Origin: Patescibacteria group bacterium
GTDB taxonomy: Bacteria; Patescibacteriota; Minisyncoccia; UBA6257; GWB1-50-10
Length of the DNA: 49,311 nt
Direction: 5' to 3'
Assembly (NCBI GenBank): GCA_038064775.1
Contig: JBBTSG010000006.1
Span: forward strand, 32,168 to 81,478
Part shown: positions 2,487 through 48,742 of the stretch, one piece after another
Layout: each line of letters opens with the position of its first letter
Numbering within the stretch: position 1 is the stretch's first letter
Translations under genes and position numbers: made by a program
Notes under the pieces: model-generated
What the model was told of the DNA's origin: nothing
The model's database searches: none
What the model saw: the letters and a program-made list of their open reading frames with translations, nothing else

Positions 2487-3218
2487 CTATATAGCTGTTG
2501 GACCGACGTACTCTACATCTTCAGAATCAAGACGACGATAAGACTTCTCGTTTTTACACTCCTCCTCAACGTGAGCTATTATACCCGGTAATCGGCCCAA
2601 AATAAAAAATGCTTTGCCAAGTCGCCAATTAAATCCAAGCTCGGAAATGATTGCAGCCACTGCCCCATCAACGTTCAATGGTAGCACCTTACCTGTCTGG
2701 CGAAACAGTTCCGACTCAATTTCCCGCGCTCGATTTAAATACTTCATGGAAAGCTTCAATTCTTGCGATTTTTTAAAAAGCGCCGTGGTTCTATGATCCT
2801 CTGTTTTATAAACCTTATGGCCATATCCGGGTAACCGTTCTTTTCTCTGAATTGAGCGCTCTACTATTACCTGTGGCGAATCAGCCGACTGGAAATAAAA
2901 AGCAGCTTTTTCAATCGCGCCACCATGCATGTCTCCTATGGCGAGAATGCCCGCGGCGATGGCCGCATTCTGAGAATTGCCGGTAGAAACTACACTTCTC
3001 GCAACAAATGCTGACGGCACCTCTATTCCATGCTCTACCATGGAAATTAAAATCGCCTCCAGCATCTTAGCCTGGTTTTTAGAGGCCTGTTTTCCCTGTA
3101 AAATAAAGAATATGGTCTCCGCCAAATTTGCATCGTCCACCAATTTAGCCAAACGAACACCTCTTATATAAAACTCCCCGTCTTTATATGAGCTGATTGC
3201 AGTTTTCCATTTCATCAC
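2487..3218 (-). CDS. Citryl-CoA lyase (citrate synthase-like domain of ATP-citrate lyase)
   Basis: EHG..PSAFVAR, GDMHGGA, LPGYGHKVYK.ED.R, PLNVDGAVAA, GRLPGIIAH; about 240 aa stand-alone citrate-synthase fold. Confidence 0.88.
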   Translation of the reverse strand: MMKWKTAISSYKDGEFYIRGVRLAKLVDDANLAETIFFILQGKQASKNQAKMLEAILISMVEHGIEVPSAFVARSVVSTGNSQNAAIAAGILAIGDMHGGAIEKAAFYFQSADSPQVIVERSIQRKERLPGYGHKVYKTEDHRTTALFKKSQELKLSMKYLNRAREIESELFRQTGKVLPLNVDGAVAAIISELGFNWRLGKAFFILGRLPGIIAHVEEECKNEKSYRRLDSEDVEYVGPTAI

Positions 3219-4123
3219 CTTATTTTCCCACGAAGTTTTTCTTTAATCAACGGTGGCACGTCTTCTAAGGTGTTTACCACATAAACTCCGGCGCGTTTTA
3301 AAGAACTTACCTTTGAGGTGTAACTACCCCTTCCTTTCATGACTATCGCGCCAGCATGCCCTAAAACCGTGCCACTCGGAAGCTTTTCTGTGAATTTCCC
3401 GGCAATCAAAGCTATTATTGGTTTTTTGAATTTTGACTTTTTTATAAATCCGGCCAGTTCTTCCTCATAAATTCCGCCCACTTCGCCGAAAATTACTATG
3501 GCGCGCGTATCGTTATCCGTACCAAAGAGTTTAACTATGTCTATAAAATCAGAACCAGAAATTTGATCACCGCCAATACCAATAACAGTGCTTTGACCCA
3601 AACCTGCGTGATTTAATGTAACTGCGATTTCTGCAACCATACCACCACTTTTAGAAATAACTCCAATTCTGCCTGGTTGAAAAATATTTTTTGGATTACT
3701 ACCGCCGATACTCCCTACTTTCCCATAACCCGGAGAAATAATACCGACAGATGATGGACCGATAATAGTTGCTTTGTTTTTTCTAGCCCAAGCAAGAATT
3801 ATCGCGGTATCCATAACCGGCACATGTTCGGTTAAAATATTTATTAGCGGGATTTTATGATTAATAGCTTCAAGCGTGGCATCTTTTACCGCAAGCGCTG
3901 GCACAACAATAAGAGACGTGTTTATGGTTGGATGTAGACGTAAGACATCTTCTACCGTGTCATAAATAGGCACTCCATAAATTATTTGACCACCCTTACC
4001 GGGCGTAACGCCAGCTAGAACCTTAGTACCATAATTCCGCATCCCCTCCATGGCACGCAACCCCTCCTTGCCAGTAATTCCCTGAATAACTACTCTTGTT
4101 TTTTTATTAACGAGAATGCTCAT
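3215..4123 (-). CDS. ATP-citrate lyase/citryl-CoA synthetase CoA-binding subunit (SucD-like); start reassigned to MSILVNKK
   Basis: VIQGITGKEG, GVTPGKGG, IIGPSSVG, SKSGGM, IGIGGD, GEVGG, phospho-His motif LGHAGA. Confidence 0.88.
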   Translation of the reverse strand: MSILVNKKTRVVIQGITGKEGLRAMEGMRNYGTKVLAGVTPGKGGQIIYGVPIYDTVEDVLRLHPTINTSLIVVPALAVKDATLEAINHKIPLINILTEHVPVMDTAIILAWARKNKATIIGPSSVGIISPGYGKVGSIGGSNPKNIFQPGRIGVISKSGGMVAEIAVTLNHAGLGQSTVIGIGGDQISGSDFIDIVKLFGTDNDTRAIVIFGEVGGIYEEELAGFIKKSKFKKPIIALIAGKFTEKLPSGTVLGHAGAIVMKGRGSYTSKVSSLKRAGVYVVNTLEDVPPLIKEKLRGKIR

Positions 4124-5198
4124 AGTTTTTCTTTTTTTTTGACAAATCAACAACTAATTTAGCGGTTTCGGACATTGGCGTCCTTGAATCAAAGATATGA
4201 AAATCATAACCCTCTTTTTCTGCCACGGCCCTTAGCATCTCCTCGGCCTCCTTTTGCCGTGGTCCATCACGCCTTATAACAAAGGGATAGTTCGGCTTTG
4301 GTTTAACGCTTCTTAAGCCATCTAAAAACCCGCGCATTGTTTCATATATATCCGTAAAGTTTGCCGTACCACCTATAACCCAACAGCCCTTGAGTCCTTT
4401 TTGCGCAAGAACACGCTTCGTTAACTCCTCAACTATTTTAGCCGGTGGATTACCGGAATATTCCACATAGTTTGCTGGACGACCGCCATAAAAAAATAAA
4501 GCGTCAATATTTAAAAGAGAGGCACCCCCACCTGATGCAAGAATTGCGATATCTCCATTTAGATTTAGAAAGCTTCGTTCGTTCGGATTTATTTTCTCAT
4601 TATCCAAAATTACTTTTGCGTCACCCGCGATGAATTGACCATTTGAAGTTTTGAGTATCGGGTTAATTTCGGCAAGTAATGCATCCTCATCTAAAAATAA
4701 TTGCCATAAATTCTTAAGTAATAGGGAAAGTGGCGGGATATCCGACGAAACAAAACCGCTTTTCTGTAACGCCTCGCGAAAAAAAAATGGTTGGACGCCA
4801 GAAACCAGATCGATGGGAAATGTTTTTGCTTTTGAAATGCCAGATCCGCCTTTTGTGGAAAGCATTAGAATTGGACTTCGCAACATTAAATCATAACTGA
4901 ACGACGCATAATATTCATTACTTGCCGTGATTTTTTCTTCGACTAGAACGCTGATAATTTTTTTACCGGAAAGACCTCTTCTTAAAAGAACTTTTAATTG
5001 TTTTTTTACTTCCGATTTGGTTTTAGCGAATAATATTCCTCCGGCCTTCTTCCTCTCTCCAAAAAGAACTTGCGCTTTTACAGCATAAGGACCAGCGAAC
5101 CGAATTTTGGTCGCCGGACTACTCGCTATAACTCGACGAGGCGTAGGAATGCTGTATTTTTCAAACAATTCCTTCCCTTGAAACTCATATAATTTCAT
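4107..5198 (-). CDS. ATP-citrate lyase ATP-grasp/citrate-binding subunit (AclB/SucC-like)
   Basis: MKLYEFQGKELF, KAQV, EINP, DAK, SGGGAS, PANYVEYSGNP; GGTANFT and IRRDGP match the ACL citrate-binding motifs (GGIANFT/RRGGP) rather than SucC (GGIVRCD). Confidence 0.85.
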   Translation of the reverse strand: MKLYEFQGKELFEKYSIPTPRRVIASSPATKIRFAGPYAVKAQVLFGERKKAGGILFAKTKSEVKKQLKVLLRRGLSGKKIISVLVEEKITASNEYYASFSYDLMLRSPILMLSTKGGSGISKAKTFPIDLVSGVQPFFFREALQKSGFVSSDIPPLSLLLKNLWQLFLDEDALLAEINPILKTSNGQFIAGDAKVILDNEKINPNERSFLNLNGDIAILASGGGASLLNIDALFFYGGRPANYVEYSGNPPAKIVEELTKRVLAQKGLKGCWVIGGTANFTDIYETMRGFLDGLRSVKPKPNYPFVIRRDGPRQKEAEEMLRAVAEKEGYDFHIFDSRTPMSETAKLVVDLSKKKKNYEHSR

Positions 5199-32573: not shown

Positions 32574-33344
32574 TTAAACCGTCCAAGAAGAAAAAGCGAA
32601 TATAATAACCATTAAAATCGTAAAAAAAGCCGCTTCTTCAAAAACTAGGGTCCGGTTCAATAAACCGCGCTCCCGGACGATAAAAAGATCGCGGCTTATG
32701 GCGGTAAAAAGCGTAAGTAGCGCGGCGGAGTTTAAAAAACCTAGTGGCAAAAAAGCAATAAACCAGCCAACTTGAAAAACAAGAAAAGCTAACGCGTAAC
32801 TCCCCCCAAGAATTATTTTTTTTGACAAGAAACCGAAAAAAACGAAATCCTCGCGGAAAGAAAGACCGATTAAAAGCATTAGGCCAACGGCAAAGAAAAA
32901 GTTTTGAGGCAACAGGTAATAAAAAATATAAGCAGTGATTACTAGCAGGGTTTTAAAAATATTAAAAACCAAAAAACGGTTGTTGAAAAATCTTTGATTC
33001 AAACCCAACCAAAGAAAAAGAAGACCGCTCCAAAAAATAACGATAAACGGGGAATTAATAAAAAAAGTAAAAAAGTTCCAAACACCTTCGAACTTATAAA
33101 GATTATTCAGCTCGAGAAAAACCAAGCTTAAAAAAAATAAAAACCAGAAAGAAAAACTAATACCTTCACTACTGCCTTTCTCGGAAAAATAAATCAGGAT
33201 AGCAACAAGAAAAAATAAAAAGACCGGCCAAAAACCGAAACCGACTTGCGTTAACCAAAAAAGAATAATTCCGTAGAAAAAAGCTTTAAACAGTAACTTC
33301 CACGTTATTTGTTTGGTTAAGAGAAATGTTAACTTTTTTACCAT
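32574..33344 (-). CDS. Hypothetical multi-pass membrane protein
   Basis: 256 aa, almost entirely hydrophobic (F/L-rich), about 8 TM segments. Confidence 0.7.
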
Positions 33345-35964
33345 CTTTCACTAAACCTCTAATCATTTTATCAGCTAAAGCATCAATAATCACTTTTTGA
33401 ATCAGCCGCTTGATTGGCCGAGCGCCGTATTCTTTATCAAAACCGTTTTTAACTAAGTATTCTTTAACCGCCGGTTTTATTGTGAGTTCAATTCGGCGTT
33501 CGGCTAATTTTTCAGTCAGTTTCTGAAGTTGGATATCAACGATTTTCCCGATATCAGCGGGTGTAAGCGCGTTAAAGATGACGGTTTCATCAAGGCGATT
33601 TAAAAATTCTGGCCGGAATGTTTCACGTAACGCTCGCCGCGCTTTTTCCCGATACTCTTCTTCTTTCGATTTTAATTCCTCTTTATCTCCTTGGGCAAAA
33701 CCTAAACCCGACATTTCGTGGAAATAATTACTGCCGACATTAGAAGTTAAAATCACAACCGCGTTCCGAAAATTAACAAGCCGCCCTTTGCCGTCGGTTA
33801 AGCGGCCGTTATCCAAAACTTGCAGTAAAACATTGAAAACTTCCGGGTGAGCTTTTTCAATTTCATCAAATAGGATCAAGCTATAAGGCCGATGCCGAAT
33901 GATTTCTGTAAGTTGGCCGCCTTCCTCAAAACCAACGTAACCCGGCGGCGAACCAATAAGCCGGGAAACAGCGTGCCGTTCCATATATTCCGACATATCA
34001 ATCCGAATAAGGGCTTTTTCGTCATTGAACATAAATTCCGCAAGTGCACGCGCTAATTCTGTTTTACCAACGCCAGTTGGTCCCAAAAACATAAATGAGC
34101 CAGACGGCCGGTCTTCCGGCGCAAGGCCGGCGCGCGATCGGCGCAACGCCCGCGCAACAGCGTTAATTGCTTCGCCCTGACCAATCACTCTCACGCCAAG
34201 CTCTTCTTCTAATCGGCTTAATTTTTTTACTTCCGATTCAAGCATTCGAGAAACCGGAATACCCGTCCAACGAGAAACTACGGAAGCAATATCTTCTTCG
34301 TTAATACTTTCTTTAATAAAACGGCGATTGCTTACAGGAATTTTTTTGCTGCTAGATTTCTTTTTTGATTTTATTTCTCCGCCTATGTGTTTTTTTTCAA
34401 AAGCGGCAGCTTCCTTTTCAGCGGCCGGCAGTTCGCCGTAAACAATTTGCGCCACTCGTTCTAAATTACCGTCTCGTTCCGCCACTTCCGCTTCCCGTTT
34501 CAAATTCTCCACTTTCTTTCTCAAGTTATTAAAATTGTCTTGCTGAATTTTTTCGGCGTGCCAGCCGGCAGATAATTCGTCGTTTTCCTCCCGTAAGCGG
34601 TTTAATTCTTTTTCTACTTCCTTGAGGCGCGGCGATTTTGTTTTTGATTTTGCTTTTTCTTTCAACAATGCCGAGCGTTCCACTTCAAGTTTTACGATAC
34701 TCCGCCGCAATTTATCGAGTTCCGCCGGCACGCTATCGCTTTCAAGTCGCTGAGCAGCCGAGGCCTCGTCAATCAAATCCACCGCTTTATCGGGCAAAAA
34801 ACGGTCGGTAATGTAGCGGGCGGATAAATTCACCGCCGCCATAATCGCTTCATCGCTTATTTTTAGCCCGTGATGCATTTCATATTTTTCTTTAAGTCCA
34901 CGCAAAATAGCAACCGAATCTTCGAGCGTTGGTTCTTCAACCACAATCGGTTGGAAACGGCGCTCAAGCGCGGCGTCTTTTTCAATATATTTTTGATATT
35001 CTTTTAGTGTTGTGGCGCCAATCGCGTGAAGATCGCCACGGGAGAGCGCCGGTTTCAATAAATTACCGGCGTCAATTGCCCCCTCAGCCGCGCCTGCCCC
35101 TACGATCATATGAATTTCATCGATAAAAAGAAGAAGTCGGCCGGCTGATTGCTGAACTTCCCGCAAAAATGCTTTTAAACGGTCTTCAAATTCACCGCGA
35201 AATTTCGTGCCAGCAATCAAAGCGCCTAAATCGAGCATAATAATCTCTTTTCCCTTCAAAGATTCAGGCACGTCACCGGAAATAATTCTCTGCGCCAAAC
35301 CTTCCACAATTGCTGTTTTTCCAACGCCCGGCTCGCCGATTAAAACCGGATTATTTTTTGTTCGTCGGGAAAGAATTTGCATCAACCGCCGCAATTCTTC
35401 CTCACGGCCAATTACCGGATCAAGCTTGCCGTCTTTCGCCCGTTCGGTTAAGTTCACGGCATATTTATCAAGTACTTGAAATTTTGATTCCGGCGTTTCA
35501 TCGGTCACCCGCACCGAACCACGCAGTTGGGCTAAAATTCGTATTAATATTTCCCGTTTTACGCCAAAACGGCTCAAAATTTCTTGCGCCGCGGAAGGCA
35601 CGTCAATTAAAGCAAGAATTAAGTGTTCGCAAGAAATGAAATCGTCTTTTTGTTTTAAAGCAATTTCACCCGCTCGATCTAAAACTTTCATCAGTTCCGG
35701 CGAAAGATAAAGTTGATTAACTGTTCCACCGCCCGCGAAAATTTTAGGAAGCGCGTTCAAATCCCGATCAAGTTCTTTTTCAAGTTCGGCGAGATTCATA
35801 TTCGCTTTTAGAAGCATTGGCCGGACAAGAGTGGATTCATCACCCAAAAGAGTAACTAAAAGATGAAGCGCTTTCAGTTCGCCGTGATGATGGCGGCCGA
35901 CTAAATCTTGGGCCGCTTGAAGTGCTTCTTGGGCCTTAATTGTAAAGCGATGGAATTGTGGCAT
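33286..35964 (-). CDS. clpB: ATP-dependent chaperone ClpB
   Basis: [26 protein letters not shown], coiled-coil M domain, [33 protein letters not shown]. Confidence 0.95.
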
Positions 35965-39137: not shown

Positions 39138-40437
39138 GAATCAATATTTCCAAAACTTTTTTTAAATCAGCTATTTTTGTCTCTCTACCGAAACTAAACC
39201 GCAAACTGCTCATAATCCTCTCTTGCTCTAATCCGATTGCGGTTAAAACATGCGAAAGTTTAGTCGCCCGCGCGGAACAAGCCGAACCGGCGGAAACCGC
39301 CACGCCCACTTTATCAAGTTTTATAAGCATTTCGTCCGCGAGCGTGCCCGGCAAATAAACATTTAAAATATGGGGCGCGGACTTATCATCAATCGGTCCG
39401 TTTACGGCGAGTGCCGGAAAAATTTTCTCGAGTCGCGCGAGAAAATATTTTTTTAATTTTTCAGTTTTGAGACAATTTTGCTTGCGGCGCGCGGAGACAA
39501 GTTCAACCGCTTTGCCGAAACCGACAATTAGCGGTGTATTTTCCGTTCCCGACCGCAAACCAAATTCCTGCCCGCCGCCGGTAATAATCGGCTTTATCTC
39601 TTTTTTAATCTTTTCCCGAAGGTAGAGCGCGCCAATGCCTTTCGGGCCATAAATTTTGTGGGCGGAGAGCGTCATTAAATCAACGCCTAATTTTTTAACG
39701 TCACAATCGAAAAACTGAAACGCTTGAACGGCGTCAATATGGAATAAGGGGTAAGAAGAAAGAAGATTTTTCTCTAAGAAAAGTGTCTCGGAGCCCGAGC
39801 GGGCACGGTCTCCGACGAAGTCGGAGGAGCGAGGGCGAGAGTCAAGCGGGCGAGCGAGCGGCTGGGCGAGCGAGACCCCGTCTTTTTGTGAGATAAATTT
39901 TCTTTCTTTGAATTCGGAAATTATCTTTGAAATTTCCGCAATCGGCTGGACCGTGCCAATTTCATTATTCACATACATTACCGATACCAAAATTGTTTTA
40001 TCGTTTAAAGCTGATTTCAATTTATTTAAATCGACTAAACCTTCACGGCTAACCGGTAAATAGATAACATCAAATCCGTCGCGCTCCAAGTCGCGAGCCG
40101 TTTCCAAAACCGATTCATGCTCAATCGCCAAAATTATAATCCGTGAATCTTTCGGTTTATCTTTAAGCGCGCCGCGCAACGCCAAGTTATTCGCTTCCGT
40201 TGCCGAACCGGTAAAAATTATTTCCCGAAATCCGGCGGCCGCCGGACGCCCGATCGCTTTCGCGATTACCTCCCGGCTTTCATCAATCGCTTTAATCGCT
40301 TCTTGGCCAAAACGGTGAAGTGAACCAGCGTTGCCAAAATTTTCTAGAAAATAAGGCATCATCGCTTTCAAAACCGCGGGGTGAACCGGCGTTGAAGCGG
40401 CATAATCAAGATAAATATTGTTTGTTTTAACTCTCAT
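39115..40437 (-). CDS. iscS: Cysteine desulfurase (IscS/NifS group I) with in-frame insertions
   Basis: YLDYAASTP, FTGSATEANN, NNEIGTVQP, HIDAVQA, SAHKIYGPKG (PLP Lys), RSGTEN, SAGSACS (catalytic Cys). Confidence 0.92.
   Translation of the reverse strand: MRVKTNNIYLDYAASTPVHPAVLKAMMPYFLENFGNAGSLHRFGQEAIKAIDESREVIAKAIGRPAAAGFREIIFTGSATEANNLALRGALKDKPKDSRIIILAIEHESVLETARDLERDGFDVIYLPVSREGLVDLNKLKSALNDKTILVSVMYVNNEIGTVQPIAEISKIISEFKERKFISQKDGVSLAQPLARPLDSRPRSSDFVGDRARSGSETLFLEKNLLSSYPLFHIDAVQAFQFFDCDVKKLGVDLMTLSAHKIYGPKGIGALYLREKIKKEIKPIITGGGQEFGLRSGTENTPLIVGFGKAVELVSARRKQNCLKTEKLKKYFLARLEKIFPALAVNGPIDDKSAPHILNVYLPGTLADEMLIKLDKVGVAVSAGSACSARATKLSHVLTAIGLEQERIMSSLRFSFGRETKIADLKKVLEILIPLEISRF
39785..39876. 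repeat. GC-rich structured in-frame insertion inside the iscS-like gene
   Basis: About 74% GC, bounded by GTCTCG/CGAGAC, internal hairpins CTCCGAC-GAA-GTCGGAG and GCCC-GAGC-GGGC, repeated GCGAG. Confidence 0.75.
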
Positions 40438-47272: not shown

Positions 47273-48742
47273 TTATTTTTTTGGTGTTTTCCAAAAACCC
47301 AATCGGAAACGACCGCCCAACATTAGCCGCGTTTCAGCTTCAAGCGCGGGCAAACTGCCAAAAAGTAAAATTGTTGCCGGCGTTAAAAGCCACTGCAAAA
47401 AGTAGATGAAATAAAATTTTATGCTGAAACCTTTGAGTCGCGGCAAAAGAATTAGAATGCTAAGCCAAGCCGAAACAATAATACCGATAACACTAAAGTT
47501 CATTAAAAAGCCTGTCACTCGCGGCAGATTATAAGAAAAAACGCTTCGGTTAAATTCCGCGCCGCCCAAAAGCACTGGTAAAAAACCGAAAAGAAAAATA
47601 ATAAAAGAACTAGCTGCCCAAGAAAAAGAACCTTCAAAAAGCACAAAAACCCACAAAATTTTTCTGCGAAACGAAATCATTTTATTATTTAAAAAATTGC
47701 TGAAAACATAAGCAATATTCTCTACTCCCCACGCCCAACGTCGCTGTTGTTTGTAAAGATTTTGCATGGCTTTCATAAAACTTCCTCCGGAAACCGCGTC
47801 CATATAAATCGGGTAATAAAGCGGCACTGAACGCCAATCGCCTTTATAGTGGAGAAAACATTGGAAAAAAATCCTTGAATCTTCTGAAACAATATTGACG
47901 TTCCAAAAACCGACTTCGTGAAGAGCTTGAAGCGGCATACTGTGCGAAGAAAAAGTTATTAATTGTTCTGGGCGAGCTTGCTGCATAAATTGCCAGAAAG
48001 TCGAAGTAAAAGCGATAAGCCGGGCAAAAGGCGAAACATCGTGAATATTATTTATGAAAAGTGGAACGGGCTGAAAACTCGAGCGATTGCCTTTCTCTGA
48101 ACTAAAAAATTGATAAGTGAGAATAGCAAAATAATCGCCTCCCGGCCTTGTGTCAATATCAAAAACCGAAACCAAAACATTTTGAAAATTTAAATTTTTT
48201 GGCTCAATTATTGTTCTAATCGCTTCTTTCGCCGCCCAAGTTTCGTTTGAGCCCTTGCCCGGCAATTCCCCCGGCAGATTTTGCGGATGTTTTGTCACTA
48301 AAAATCCGCCGAACTCTTTTTTAAATTCTTCTTCAATTTTTAAAGCTACGCGCGCGTCTTCTTTAAAACCGCGCTCTTCGGTTGCAAGCACAACAAATAA
48401 TTTATCTTTGGGATAATTGGCTTTCACCAAACTTAAAAAACTTTCCCGGACAAGATCGTAGGATTCCTGATACATTGGGAAAATAATAAGGTGGCGAATA
48501 TTGCTCCAAGCTAAATTTGAAGATTGAAGTTTAGTGAGCCAGTCAATTTTCAAATTCGCCCGCAACTTCAAAAAAGAAAAACGGAGATGGAGCAAAAGAT
48601 AAAGTGTCCGCAAAAGCCAAAAAAGATCGTAAAGCACAATAAAAATCGCGACCGTAAGCGGCGTAAGATATGACAAAATAACAAGCGTTATAAGAACAAG
48701 CCAAACCGTAAGCCCCGGTAAAATTTCAAAAAACCGGTACAT
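47273..48742 (-). CDS. Membrane-bound glycosyltransferase family 2
   Basis: IFPMYQE, GKGSNE, VFDID (DxD), SEDSRIF, QQRRWAW (QxxRW), flanking TM helices. Confidence 0.9.
   Translation of the reverse strand: MYRFFEILPGLTVWLVLITLVILSYLTPLTVAIFIVLYDLFWLLRTLYLLLHLRFSFLKLRANLKIDWLTKLQSSNLAWSNIRHLIIFPMYQESYDLVRESFLSLVKANYPKDKLFVVLATEERGFKEDARVALKIEEEFKKEFGGFLVTKHPQNLPGELPGKGSNETWAAKEAIRTIIEPKNLNFQNVLVSVFDIDTRPGGDYFAILTYQFFSSEKGNRSSFQPVPLFINNIHDVSPFARLIAFTSTFWQFMQQARPEQLITFSSHSMPLQALHEVGFWNVNIVSEDSRIFFQCFLHYKGDWRSVPLYYPIYMDAVSGGSFMKAMQNLYKQQRRWAWGVENIAYVFSNFLNNKMISFRRKILWVFVLFEGSFSWAASSFIIFLFGFLPVLLGGAEFNRSVFSYNLPRVTGFLMNFSVIGIIVSAWLSILILLPRLKGFSIKFYFIYFLQWLLTPATILLFGSLPALEAETRLMLGGRFRLGFWKTPKK

Follow-up and report, generated by a model that had tools for sequence, protein, structure and literature searches.

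A structured palindromic repeat dispersed in Patescibacteria, with a copy in frame in a cysteine desulfurase gene

We studied a G+C-rich segment inside a gene for a class-V aminotransferase/cysteine desulfurase (IscS/NifS type) on contig JBBTSG010000006.1 of a Patescibacteria group bacterium (assembly GCA_038064775.1); the 49,311-nt stretch of this contig that was analysed is called the window throughout. The 440-residue open reading frame (ORF) matched the Pfam family Aminotran_5 (2.1e-74) and cysteine desulfurases in the PDB (down to 1e-86). The gene order MgtC-(NUDIX)-IscS-SIMPL-HtrA-ClpB is common to the window and loci L002, L007, L070 and L072. Within the IscS gene lies a 139-nt palindromic repeat element, and related copies occur at the same site in other IscS genes, in unrelated genes and between genes (Table 1).

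Alignment to solved cysteine desulfurases placed residues 7-175 and 231-430 of the window IscS on chain residues 10-176 and 182-378, leaving about 50 surplus residues at 176-230 (about 47-50 added overall) between a helix and the HxDA strand (YPLFHIDA). The original prediction had described a G+C-rich insertion in a cysteine desulfurase, and this was borne out: the core that it had marked has 72.8% G+C, compared with 40.5% in the whole window and 43.5% in the remaining gene. Besides the Aminotran_5 fold, the protein has the pyridoxal 5'-phosphate (PLP) lysine (SAHK) and the catalytic cysteine loop (SGSACS) of a cysteine desulfurase, both intact, and H107, D235, Q238, K261 and C387 are invariant in a 64-sequence IscS alignment. 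An AlphaFold model made with the 64-sequence alignment had a mean predicted local distance difference test (pLDDT) score of 86.7. Residues ~187-222 of the insert were modelled as coil with pLDDT 47-65, both neighbouring sides exceeded 95, and the helix before the insert (166-186) was extended. In the predicted structure the IscS core is intact and the insert forms a low-confidence coil at the surface, a position that both the prediction and the structure alignment make compatible with the host fold. Because the invariant residues, those of the PLP lysine and cysteine loop among them, are all intact, the gene looks functional, with a disordered surface loop added.

The covariance model of the repeat (R1) matched the window copy at all 138 model positions (144.5 bits, E 2e-37). 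By this model the extent first proposed, 39785-39876, was too narrow (Table 1). A 26-nt inverted repeat, 81% complementary, spans the two ends of the unit (39756-81/39883-908). The model strand is antisense to the IscS mRNA. The element encodes IscS residues 179-225, RKFISQKDGVSLAQPLARPLDSRPRSSDFVGDRARSGSETLFLEKNL, and the tryptic peptides expected from the insert are DGVSLAQPLARPLDSRPR, SSDFVGDR and SGSETLFLEK.

Aligning IscS orthologues and comparing the segment with relatives by BLAST had been suggested as checks. In 120 IscS orthologues from Patescibacteria, EISKII and YPLFHTDA served as anchors; they were 18-74 residues apart, and several peptide families could be distinguished among the longer inserts. 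One of these, KDGVSLAQPL...ARSGSETLFLE, represents the window's own orientation. Another, KKSVSE...GWASETPSFRE, is encoded by the window's opposite (+) strand, the translation of which (KKSVSEPERA...ASETPSF) is the insert peptide of P0009, P0017, P0020, P0086 and P0120. At the DNA level, the element in the syntenic locus L007 (MgtC-IscS-HtrA-ClpB) occupied the same position of IscS but ran in the opposite direction. The two elements were 94% identical over 121 nt (blastn) and 90% identical over the whole unit, compared with 75-77% for the flanking coding DNA, and the proteins were only ~56% identical. L002 likewise carried it there, oriented oppositely to the window copy (blastn identity 83%, 133 nt), and L001 and L006 had it in the window's orientation. 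In an IscS tree, which was poorly resolved, element-bearing genes of both orientations were scattered among genes without the element.

Further copies and inserts were observed in and around IscS genes. A second, diverged copy (35 bits) lies elsewhere within the same IscS gene of L022 (3775-3908). Full copies directly upstream of the IscS start (L004 9947-10081, L023 5629-5763, L047 545-679, L067 2271-2405) were misread by gene callers as an N-terminal extension, so that P0023 begins MTLALALSLRSNHARSGSETLLKNN... before the true MKRIYFDY. The same IscS loop holds other insert families in L070 (gene at 3001-4326; an AT-rich palindrome of the ARNPKQIPNSKNQIQ...SDLGFRNSDL type), L071 (848-2125; a short AT-rich insert with no clear fold) and L072 (2397-3695; a different GC-rich palindrome). 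We considered these inserts as decayed copies and rejected the idea, since none was recognised by R1; several families of insert share this loop as a hot spot. P0008, P0009 and P0023 have extra low-complexity IscS inserts after RGAIK... and after LY.R (e.g. LSPKPYPLNP).

We searched one genome for each of 185,579 species with an exact 19-base pattern, the conserved left block AAAAGTGTCTCGGANNNNGAGCG. The pattern matched 23 loci, 21 of them true copies and two chance matches. All 21 true copies lay in metagenome-assembled genomes (MAGs) of Patescibacteria (Candidate Phyla Radiation, CPR), with labels including Wolfebacteria, Liptonbacteria, Jorgensenbacteria and Brennerbacteria, and three MAGs had two loci each. 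In metagenomes the same pattern found 39 contigs (37 real copies), mostly from groundwater. No viral contig, phage record or plasmid record matched the element. A search with R1 gave 63 matches in 52 loci, including diverged copies that the exact pattern had missed: the 'family C/D' IscS inserts (L004, L005), paired intergenic copies (L001, L018, L069) and the second IscS copy of L022. The pairs are inverted (L001 4920-5228, L018 5323-5625, L069 177-511).

At least 12 gene families besides IscS host the element, in addition to about a dozen intergenic copies; hosts confirmed by Pfam are marked in Table 1. In ~30 distinct gene-borne copies, found in both orientations and in several frames, the host ORF was open in every case. 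Where such copies contained nested extra hairpins, these added 36 or 21 nt, both multiples of three. The nested hairpins are perfect and sit in the P3 or P4 loop (L010 5660-5832, L031 1453-1625, L019 3953-4112, L050 1494-1652, L065 124-273; helices as described below), and in L010 and L031, both TsaD genes, the nesting point is shared and the hairpin sequences differ. The family was traced at the DNA level because short peptide queries were without power: the peptide of the + strand had too few exact words in common with any protein, a peptide profile of nine sequences matched nothing among 5.8 billion proteins at E up to 0.01, and an exhaustive phmmer search with the sense peptide matched nothing beyond a single IscS and a eukaryote-like repeat protein judged spurious. 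The repeat is a new family of coding palindromic repeats, dispersed in Patescibacteria of the types named above and without a gene of its own.

To obtain a consensus structure, alignments A2 (20 distinct copies) and A4 (32) were folded with RNAalifold, which returned a three-way junction made up of the helices P1, P2, P3 and P4. P1 is a long outer stem whose sequence varies by copy while its arms stay complementary; every pair covaries, and the duplex was predicted in 40 of 40 distinct copies folded singly (P3 and P4 in most). In P2, TGTCTCGGAG(C/G)CCGAGC pairs with GCGAGG(G/C)CGAGAGTCA, the central pair being C-G in 14 copies, G-C in 15, and U-A, U-G and G-U in one each. P2 closes P3, a variable hairpin with a loop that is usually of the GAA type; P3 stems elsewhere are CTCCGGC/GCCGGAG, CTCCCGC/GCGGGAG, TGCCGC/GTGGCA and others. 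The second variable hairpin, P4, has (T/G)CGCTGG as its conserved loop. In other copies it is plain Watson-Crick (CAATTTTC/GAAAATTG, TATTCGCC/GGCGAATA, GCGGC/GCCGC); in the window copy it would pair only through G-C alternating with tandem G.A mismatches.

Every short complementarity and repeat listed in the original prediction was found in the sequence, and the comparison of copies assigned them new partners in part. The CTCCGAC-GAA-GTCGGAG hairpin is P3 and is supported across copies, and the repeated GCGAG is present as GGGCGAG(CGAG). The motifs GTCTCG and CGAGAC (39785-90 and 39871-76), thought to close the element, are both there but do not pair with each other, because GTCTCG is unchanged in copies where CGAGAC is replaced. 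GTCTCG instead belongs to P2, in which GAG(C/G)CC and GAGG(G/C)CG change together at the C/G position. Likewise, GCCC and GGGC motifs are present, but the partner of GCCC is the GGGC at 39833-36 and not the adjacent one.

Table 1. Features of the element and its host gene in the window, and genes that host copies of the family.
Feature	Position	Strand	Basis or remark
Cysteine desulfurase gene (class-V aminotransferase, IscS/NifS type), 440 residues	39115..40437	-	ORF, Pfam, PDB, synteny
Whole repeat element, 139 nt	39763..39901	+ (model strand)	Covariance model R1
P1 5' arm (outer stem), AT-rich in window copy	39764..39783	+	Pairs with 39882-39900
P2 5' strand, TGTCTCGGAGCCCGAGC, most conserved block of the family	39784..39800	+	Pairs with 39829-39844
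GC-rich core as first noted, 72.8% GC, residues 188-218	39785..39876	+	Composition
Conserved unpaired junction, GGGCACGGT	39801..39809	+	Near-invariant GCGGGCAYGGT in alignments A2, A4
P3 hairpin, CTCCGAC-GAA-GTCGGAG	39810..39826	+	Inverted repeat I9; stem varies between copies, stays paired
P2 3' strand, GCGAGGGCGAGAGTCA	39829..39844	+	Covariation with 39784-39800
P4 hairpin, GCGAGCGAG / GCGAGCGAG around CGGCTGG loop	39848..39878	+	Pair covariation across copies
P1 3' arm (outer stem)	39882..39900	+	Covariation with 5' arm
Host IscS			Window copy and orthologues
Host TsaD			Pfam
Host MnmA			Pfam
Host LigA (NAD-dependent DNA ligase)			Pfam
Host FolD			Pfam
Host ParB			Pfam
Host DprA			Pfam
Host RecG			Pfam
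Host LeuRS			Pfam gives class I tRNA synthetase only; LeuRS by motifs
Host GT2 glycosyltransferase			Pfam
Host P-type ATPase			5' end of gene; Pfam
Host LepA-like GTPase			Motif only
Host Tgt			Truncated element remnant; gene by motif only

We compared the pairing in these helices with shuffled and slid controls. In a MAFFT alignment, which was not fitted to the structure, 91.5% of cells were paired (shuffled 78.0%, slid 33-51%), and the covariation score was 0.378, compared with 0.149 for shuffled alignments (0 of 500 reached it) and at most 0.154 for slid ones. The alignment fitted with R1 gave 92.0% paired cells (shuffled 68.4%, slid 41-47%), 40 of 41 pairs changed on both sides (26.4 and 19-26, respectively) and a score of 0.554 (shuffled 0.164, 0 of 500; slid 0.06-0.09). 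The MAFFT result is the fairer control, since the R1 alignment leans towards the model. Single-sequence folding energies were unexceptional on both strands (z -0.9 to -1.2), so that the evidence for structure is comparative and not thermodynamic. An intergenic copy in L001 (5098-5228; 57.5 bits) has only 37% GC and AT-rich stems, and retains the GCGAAGC hairpin of P3, the CGCTGG loop and the junction nucleotides. Because this copy keeps both fold and loops, these are essential, and GC richness is typical without being so. The comparison of copies strongly supports a three-way-junction fold shared by the family.

On the model strand, G.T pairs outnumbered A.C mismatches (88 vs 50 overall, 42 vs 10 in P1), a bias that is suggestive only, because the alignment was model-fitted. 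In gene-borne copies the model strand was sense about twice as often as antisense (hand tally). The asymmetry hints that one particular strand folds single-stranded.

We then determined how many copies the source genome holds. The locus was present in no RNA-seq run and in four groundwater metagenome runs, in which the contigs end inside the element, and a 56-nt unitig (39831-39886) had a depth 2-3 times that of its surroundings. One alternative flank of the unitig, AACGAAGCCGAACCC..., is that of the LeuRS locus L040, which has the insert peptide SRKDGVSLAQPLARPLDSRPHSSNFVGDHARSGSETLFLE and an element ~88% identical to the window copy over the whole unit, the 56-nt stretch being identical. In the same runs L040 was present at 100% identity and at depths of 16.4-17.2 and 11.4-12.2, equal to those of the window (15.4-16.9 and 10.6-11). 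These depths indicate that the source genome holds at least two copies, one in IscS and one in LeuRS. Given the LeuRS copy at equal depth and the unrelated host genes, the segment is neither single-copy nor an ordinary conserved protein loop.

No second copy was found in the window by blastn, tblastn, pattern search or covariance model. Rfam gave no match in the whole window at gathering score, and a permissive search of the element region (E up to 10) gave only one irrelevant match at E = 9. The window has no tRNA or tmRNA gene. Only two places in it reach 68% GC over 92 nt. The one outside the element, at 34097-34197, is without similarity to the repeat, lies in an 892-residue ORF (33286-35964; ClpB by synteny with fetched loci) and looks like ordinary coding DNA. 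A 23-nt inverted repeat (48927/49034) was considered as a further element and rejected, as it falls within an ordinary membrane-protein ORF.

Truncated and apparently empty sites were also observed. In a Tgt-like gene (assigned by its TDSGGFQ motif only), L035 (2735-2883) and L062 (4027-4175) retain only the initial ~35 nt of the element, in frame (...GNHARSASETLFQ...), and this truncated remnant implies that copies decay in place. The GT2 gene of the window (47273-48742, minus strand) is an orthologue of element-bearing genes in L019, L039 and L052, and its site is empty. The empty site (48500-48523) reads ...KLQSSNLA followed by WSNIRHL, with the DNA TCAAATTTAGCT TGGAGCAAT, and resembles the left arm plus the right flank of the filled alleles (CGAAACCTCGCC ... 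TTGAGCGAT); it may be the solo-arm remnant of a lost copy. The IscS orthologue P0055 (KFKERNFAS-LSGAC-PLFH) looks like a similar case.

At orthologous sites the element was more conserved than the flanking essential coding DNA (85-97% vs 67-89% identity) in 15 of 16 comparisons, the exception being the closest pair, L012 and L057 (element 96%, flanks 99%). Elements clustered by host gene only partly. In particular, the copies in a GT2 gene (L039) and a ParB gene (L066) from different samples were 93% identical, arms included. Their nearly identical arms led us to reject the idea that the outer arm is copied from the host flank, and make the whole hairpin the spreading unit. Just outside the palindrome, a subset of copies is flanked by a direct repeat of 6 nt (consensus GAGCGA). 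L019, L039 and L052 have GAGCGA at either end, L048 has GAATGA at either end, and L058 and others also belong to the flanked set. The direct repeat is absent or unclear in other subfamilies, including the window copy, and could be a target duplication with strong target preference or a part of the element. The 56 ORFs beside intergenic copies had no family common to more than two of them, and no transposase was among the 25 families listed.

We consider it likely that the segment in IscS is one copy of a dispersed, structured palindromic repeat of ~140 nt that is non-autonomous, resembles the Rickettsia palindromic element (RPE) and is tolerated in a permissive loop. The dispersed copies, their two orientations and the host ORF that is always kept support what had first been proposed, a miniature non-autonomous element tolerated in frame. 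Such DNA, selfish or at least of the repeat type, would land in protein-coding genes, and a copy would survive only if its length keeps the frame, the frame used is free of stop codons and the site is a permissive surface loop; the G+C-rich core would help that frame stay open. In the window, the copy would sit between the strand YPLFHIDA and a helix that ends near residue 186, leaving the PLP-binding core untouched, and the ribosome would read through it, adding a disordered loop of ~47 residues. The element would have spread as DNA without a transposase of its own, one strand presumably folding singly, as single-stranded DNA or RNA, during spread or maintenance. Opposite orientations at one site could arise by a flip between the palindromic arms or by re-insertion.

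Several points weigh against this reading. Conservation above that of the flanks is unusual for decaying selfish DNA and suggests selection, concerted evolution or re-invasion. Variable termini around a conserved core are the reverse of a classical miniature inverted-repeat transposable element (MITE). The same sites recur across lineages (IscS, TsaD, MnmA, GT2, LigA), and presence on the IscS tree is patchy; ancient insertions that flipped in place and were often lost, repeated re-insertion, or gene conversion would each fit this pattern. The density is low here, with a single copy in 49 kb, and the reading supposes that the insert is translated. We found neither an enzyme that would mobilise the element nor a filled/empty polymorphism, and no target-site duplication that was unambiguous.

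A further reading, which we put forward tentatively and think improbable, is that the element is more than passively tolerated: an enzyme of Patescibacteria would recognise the three-way junction, formed by one particular strand as single-stranded DNA or RNA, and the element would time and again re-occupy or convert the same loops of orthologous essential genes in either orientation, in the manner of homing or concerted evolution. If true, this would explain why the element is more conserved than its host genes, why its interior and not its ends are conserved, and why its presence is patchy, and it would constitute a mobile or maintenance system without a described counterpart.

The repeat might instead be a functional structured nucleic-acid module, such as a binding site for a lineage-specific protein or an mRNA or replication signal, held by purifying selection at each locus; its position within genes would then be more than a matter of tolerance. 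The strong covariation in all helices, the near-invariant unpaired junction and loop nucleotides, the AT-rich copy that retains fold and conserved loops, the conservation above flanking essential DNA in all but one comparison and the excess of G.T over A.C on one strand are consistent with such a role. So is the position of many intergenic copies, which begin 6-14 nt past the stop codon of a neighbour (L008, L027, L032, L036, L038, L048, L065 among them); with a hairpin and then a T-run at both ends, the element may serve as a transcription terminator or have replaced one. However, one gene site can hold the element in either orientation, so that no single transcript-level role can apply to every copy. 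Moreover, presence among orthologues is patchy, many of them lacking the element, the L012/L057 element changes faster than its flanks, and truncated and solo-arm remnants exist. Covariation would be equally expected if only structure-competent master copies multiply. We therefore regard selection for a function at each locus as unlikely, somewhat more so than recognition by an enzyme.

Removal at the RNA level (as an intron-like or ribozyme-mediated intervening sequence) or bypass, either of which would leave the mature IscS without the insert, is very improbable. Its pronounced structure, high GC content and conserved unpaired nucleotides would suit such a sequence, but the unit has neither the match to a curated family nor the sense orientation of a self-splicing or self-cleaving RNA: Rfam gave no match even at E up to 10 apart from the irrelevant one mentioned above, and the gene-borne copies include both orientations with respect to the mRNA. 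In the DNA runs, no contig jumps over the segment 39763-39901. All of the ~30 distinct gene-borne copies are in frame and free of stop codons, nested additions of 36 and 21 nt included, a constraint that an excised sequence would not face. Least credible of all is an ordinary lineage-specific protein loop evolved in place with incidental GC content and hairpins: the orthologue linker does vary here (18-74 residues), but the same nucleotides are read on the opposite strand in orthologues and occur in unrelated genes and intergenic DNA, the exhaustive phmmer search found the peptide as a domain in no other protein family, and the DNA is conserved far beyond coding needs.

A dispersed repeat tolerated in frame would account for numerous unusual low-complexity inserts in annotated CPR proteins, and for spurious N-terminal extensions. 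As protein positions the inserts are not homologous, and alignments and phylogenies should be made with them masked. Their sites map permissive loops in IscS, TsaD, MnmA, LigA and other enzymes, which is of use in protein engineering, and the family supplies a defined structure, conserved loops and natural variants for the study of movement or maintenance.

Repetitive extragenic palindromic sequences (REPs) are extragenic and shorter, have a conserved GTAG-type head and are mobilised by RAYT proteins, which are IS200/IS605-like HUH Y1 transposases. Like REPs and REPINs, the present family is a hairpin-forming non-autonomous repeat in which structure is maintained, and a strand-specific single-stranded fold is plausible from the excess of G.T over A.C. 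Unlike them, most of its copies are intragenic. RAYT and TnpA were absent from the 25 families listed for the 56 ORFs beside intergenic copies, and on these two grounds, the second judged on neighbouring ORFs, we do not assign the family to REP/REPIN.

MITEs are small, non-coding and multi-copy, have inverted-repeat ends and are sometimes intragenic, making in-frame fusions (PMC10969869). The present family has these features of size, lack of coding capacity, copy number, ends and intragenic position, but its arms vary between copies while the interior is conserved, and we found no cognate insertion sequence with the same ends, that is, no terminal inverted repeats conserved in common with an autonomous element. 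Given these differences and the lack of proof for a target duplication, the family does not count as a classical MITE.

Of known systems, the RPE is the nearest analogue. RPEs are palindromic repeats of ~150 bp. They occur in numerous in-frame copies within unrelated housekeeping genes and also in intergenic DNA; their extra peptides were judged compatible with the host folds, and their mode of movement is unknown (PMC10969869, which summarises the work of Ogata et al. 2000 and 2002). The present family is similar in several respects: a palindromic unit of like size (139 nt, with P1 in 40 of 40 copies), in-frame copies in unrelated housekeeping genes, several dispersed genic and intergenic copies per genome (two loci in each of three MAGs, at least two copies in the source genome), no transposase of its own, and small, reduced host genomes. 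By this analogy we call it RPE-like in function, and we claim neither membership nor a sequence relationship. It differs from RPEs in its hosts (Patescibacteria, not Rickettsiales), in its G+C-rich core within an A+T-rich genome, in its branched three-way junction with a conserved interior and a variable outer stem, in occupying the same orthologous site in both orientations, and in being more conserved than the host gene across deep divergences. The branched fold with its conserved interior, the recurrence in the same loops in both orientations and the conservation above host genes are what sets the family apart. Our search of the full-text literature found no paper linking palindromic elements or MITEs with CPR/Patescibacteria. 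Coding palindromic repeats have so far been treated as a peculiarity of Rickettsia; the family described here is a second, independent case, which suggests that small folded repeats have repeatedly colonised essential genes in frame where genomes are tiny and gene-dense.

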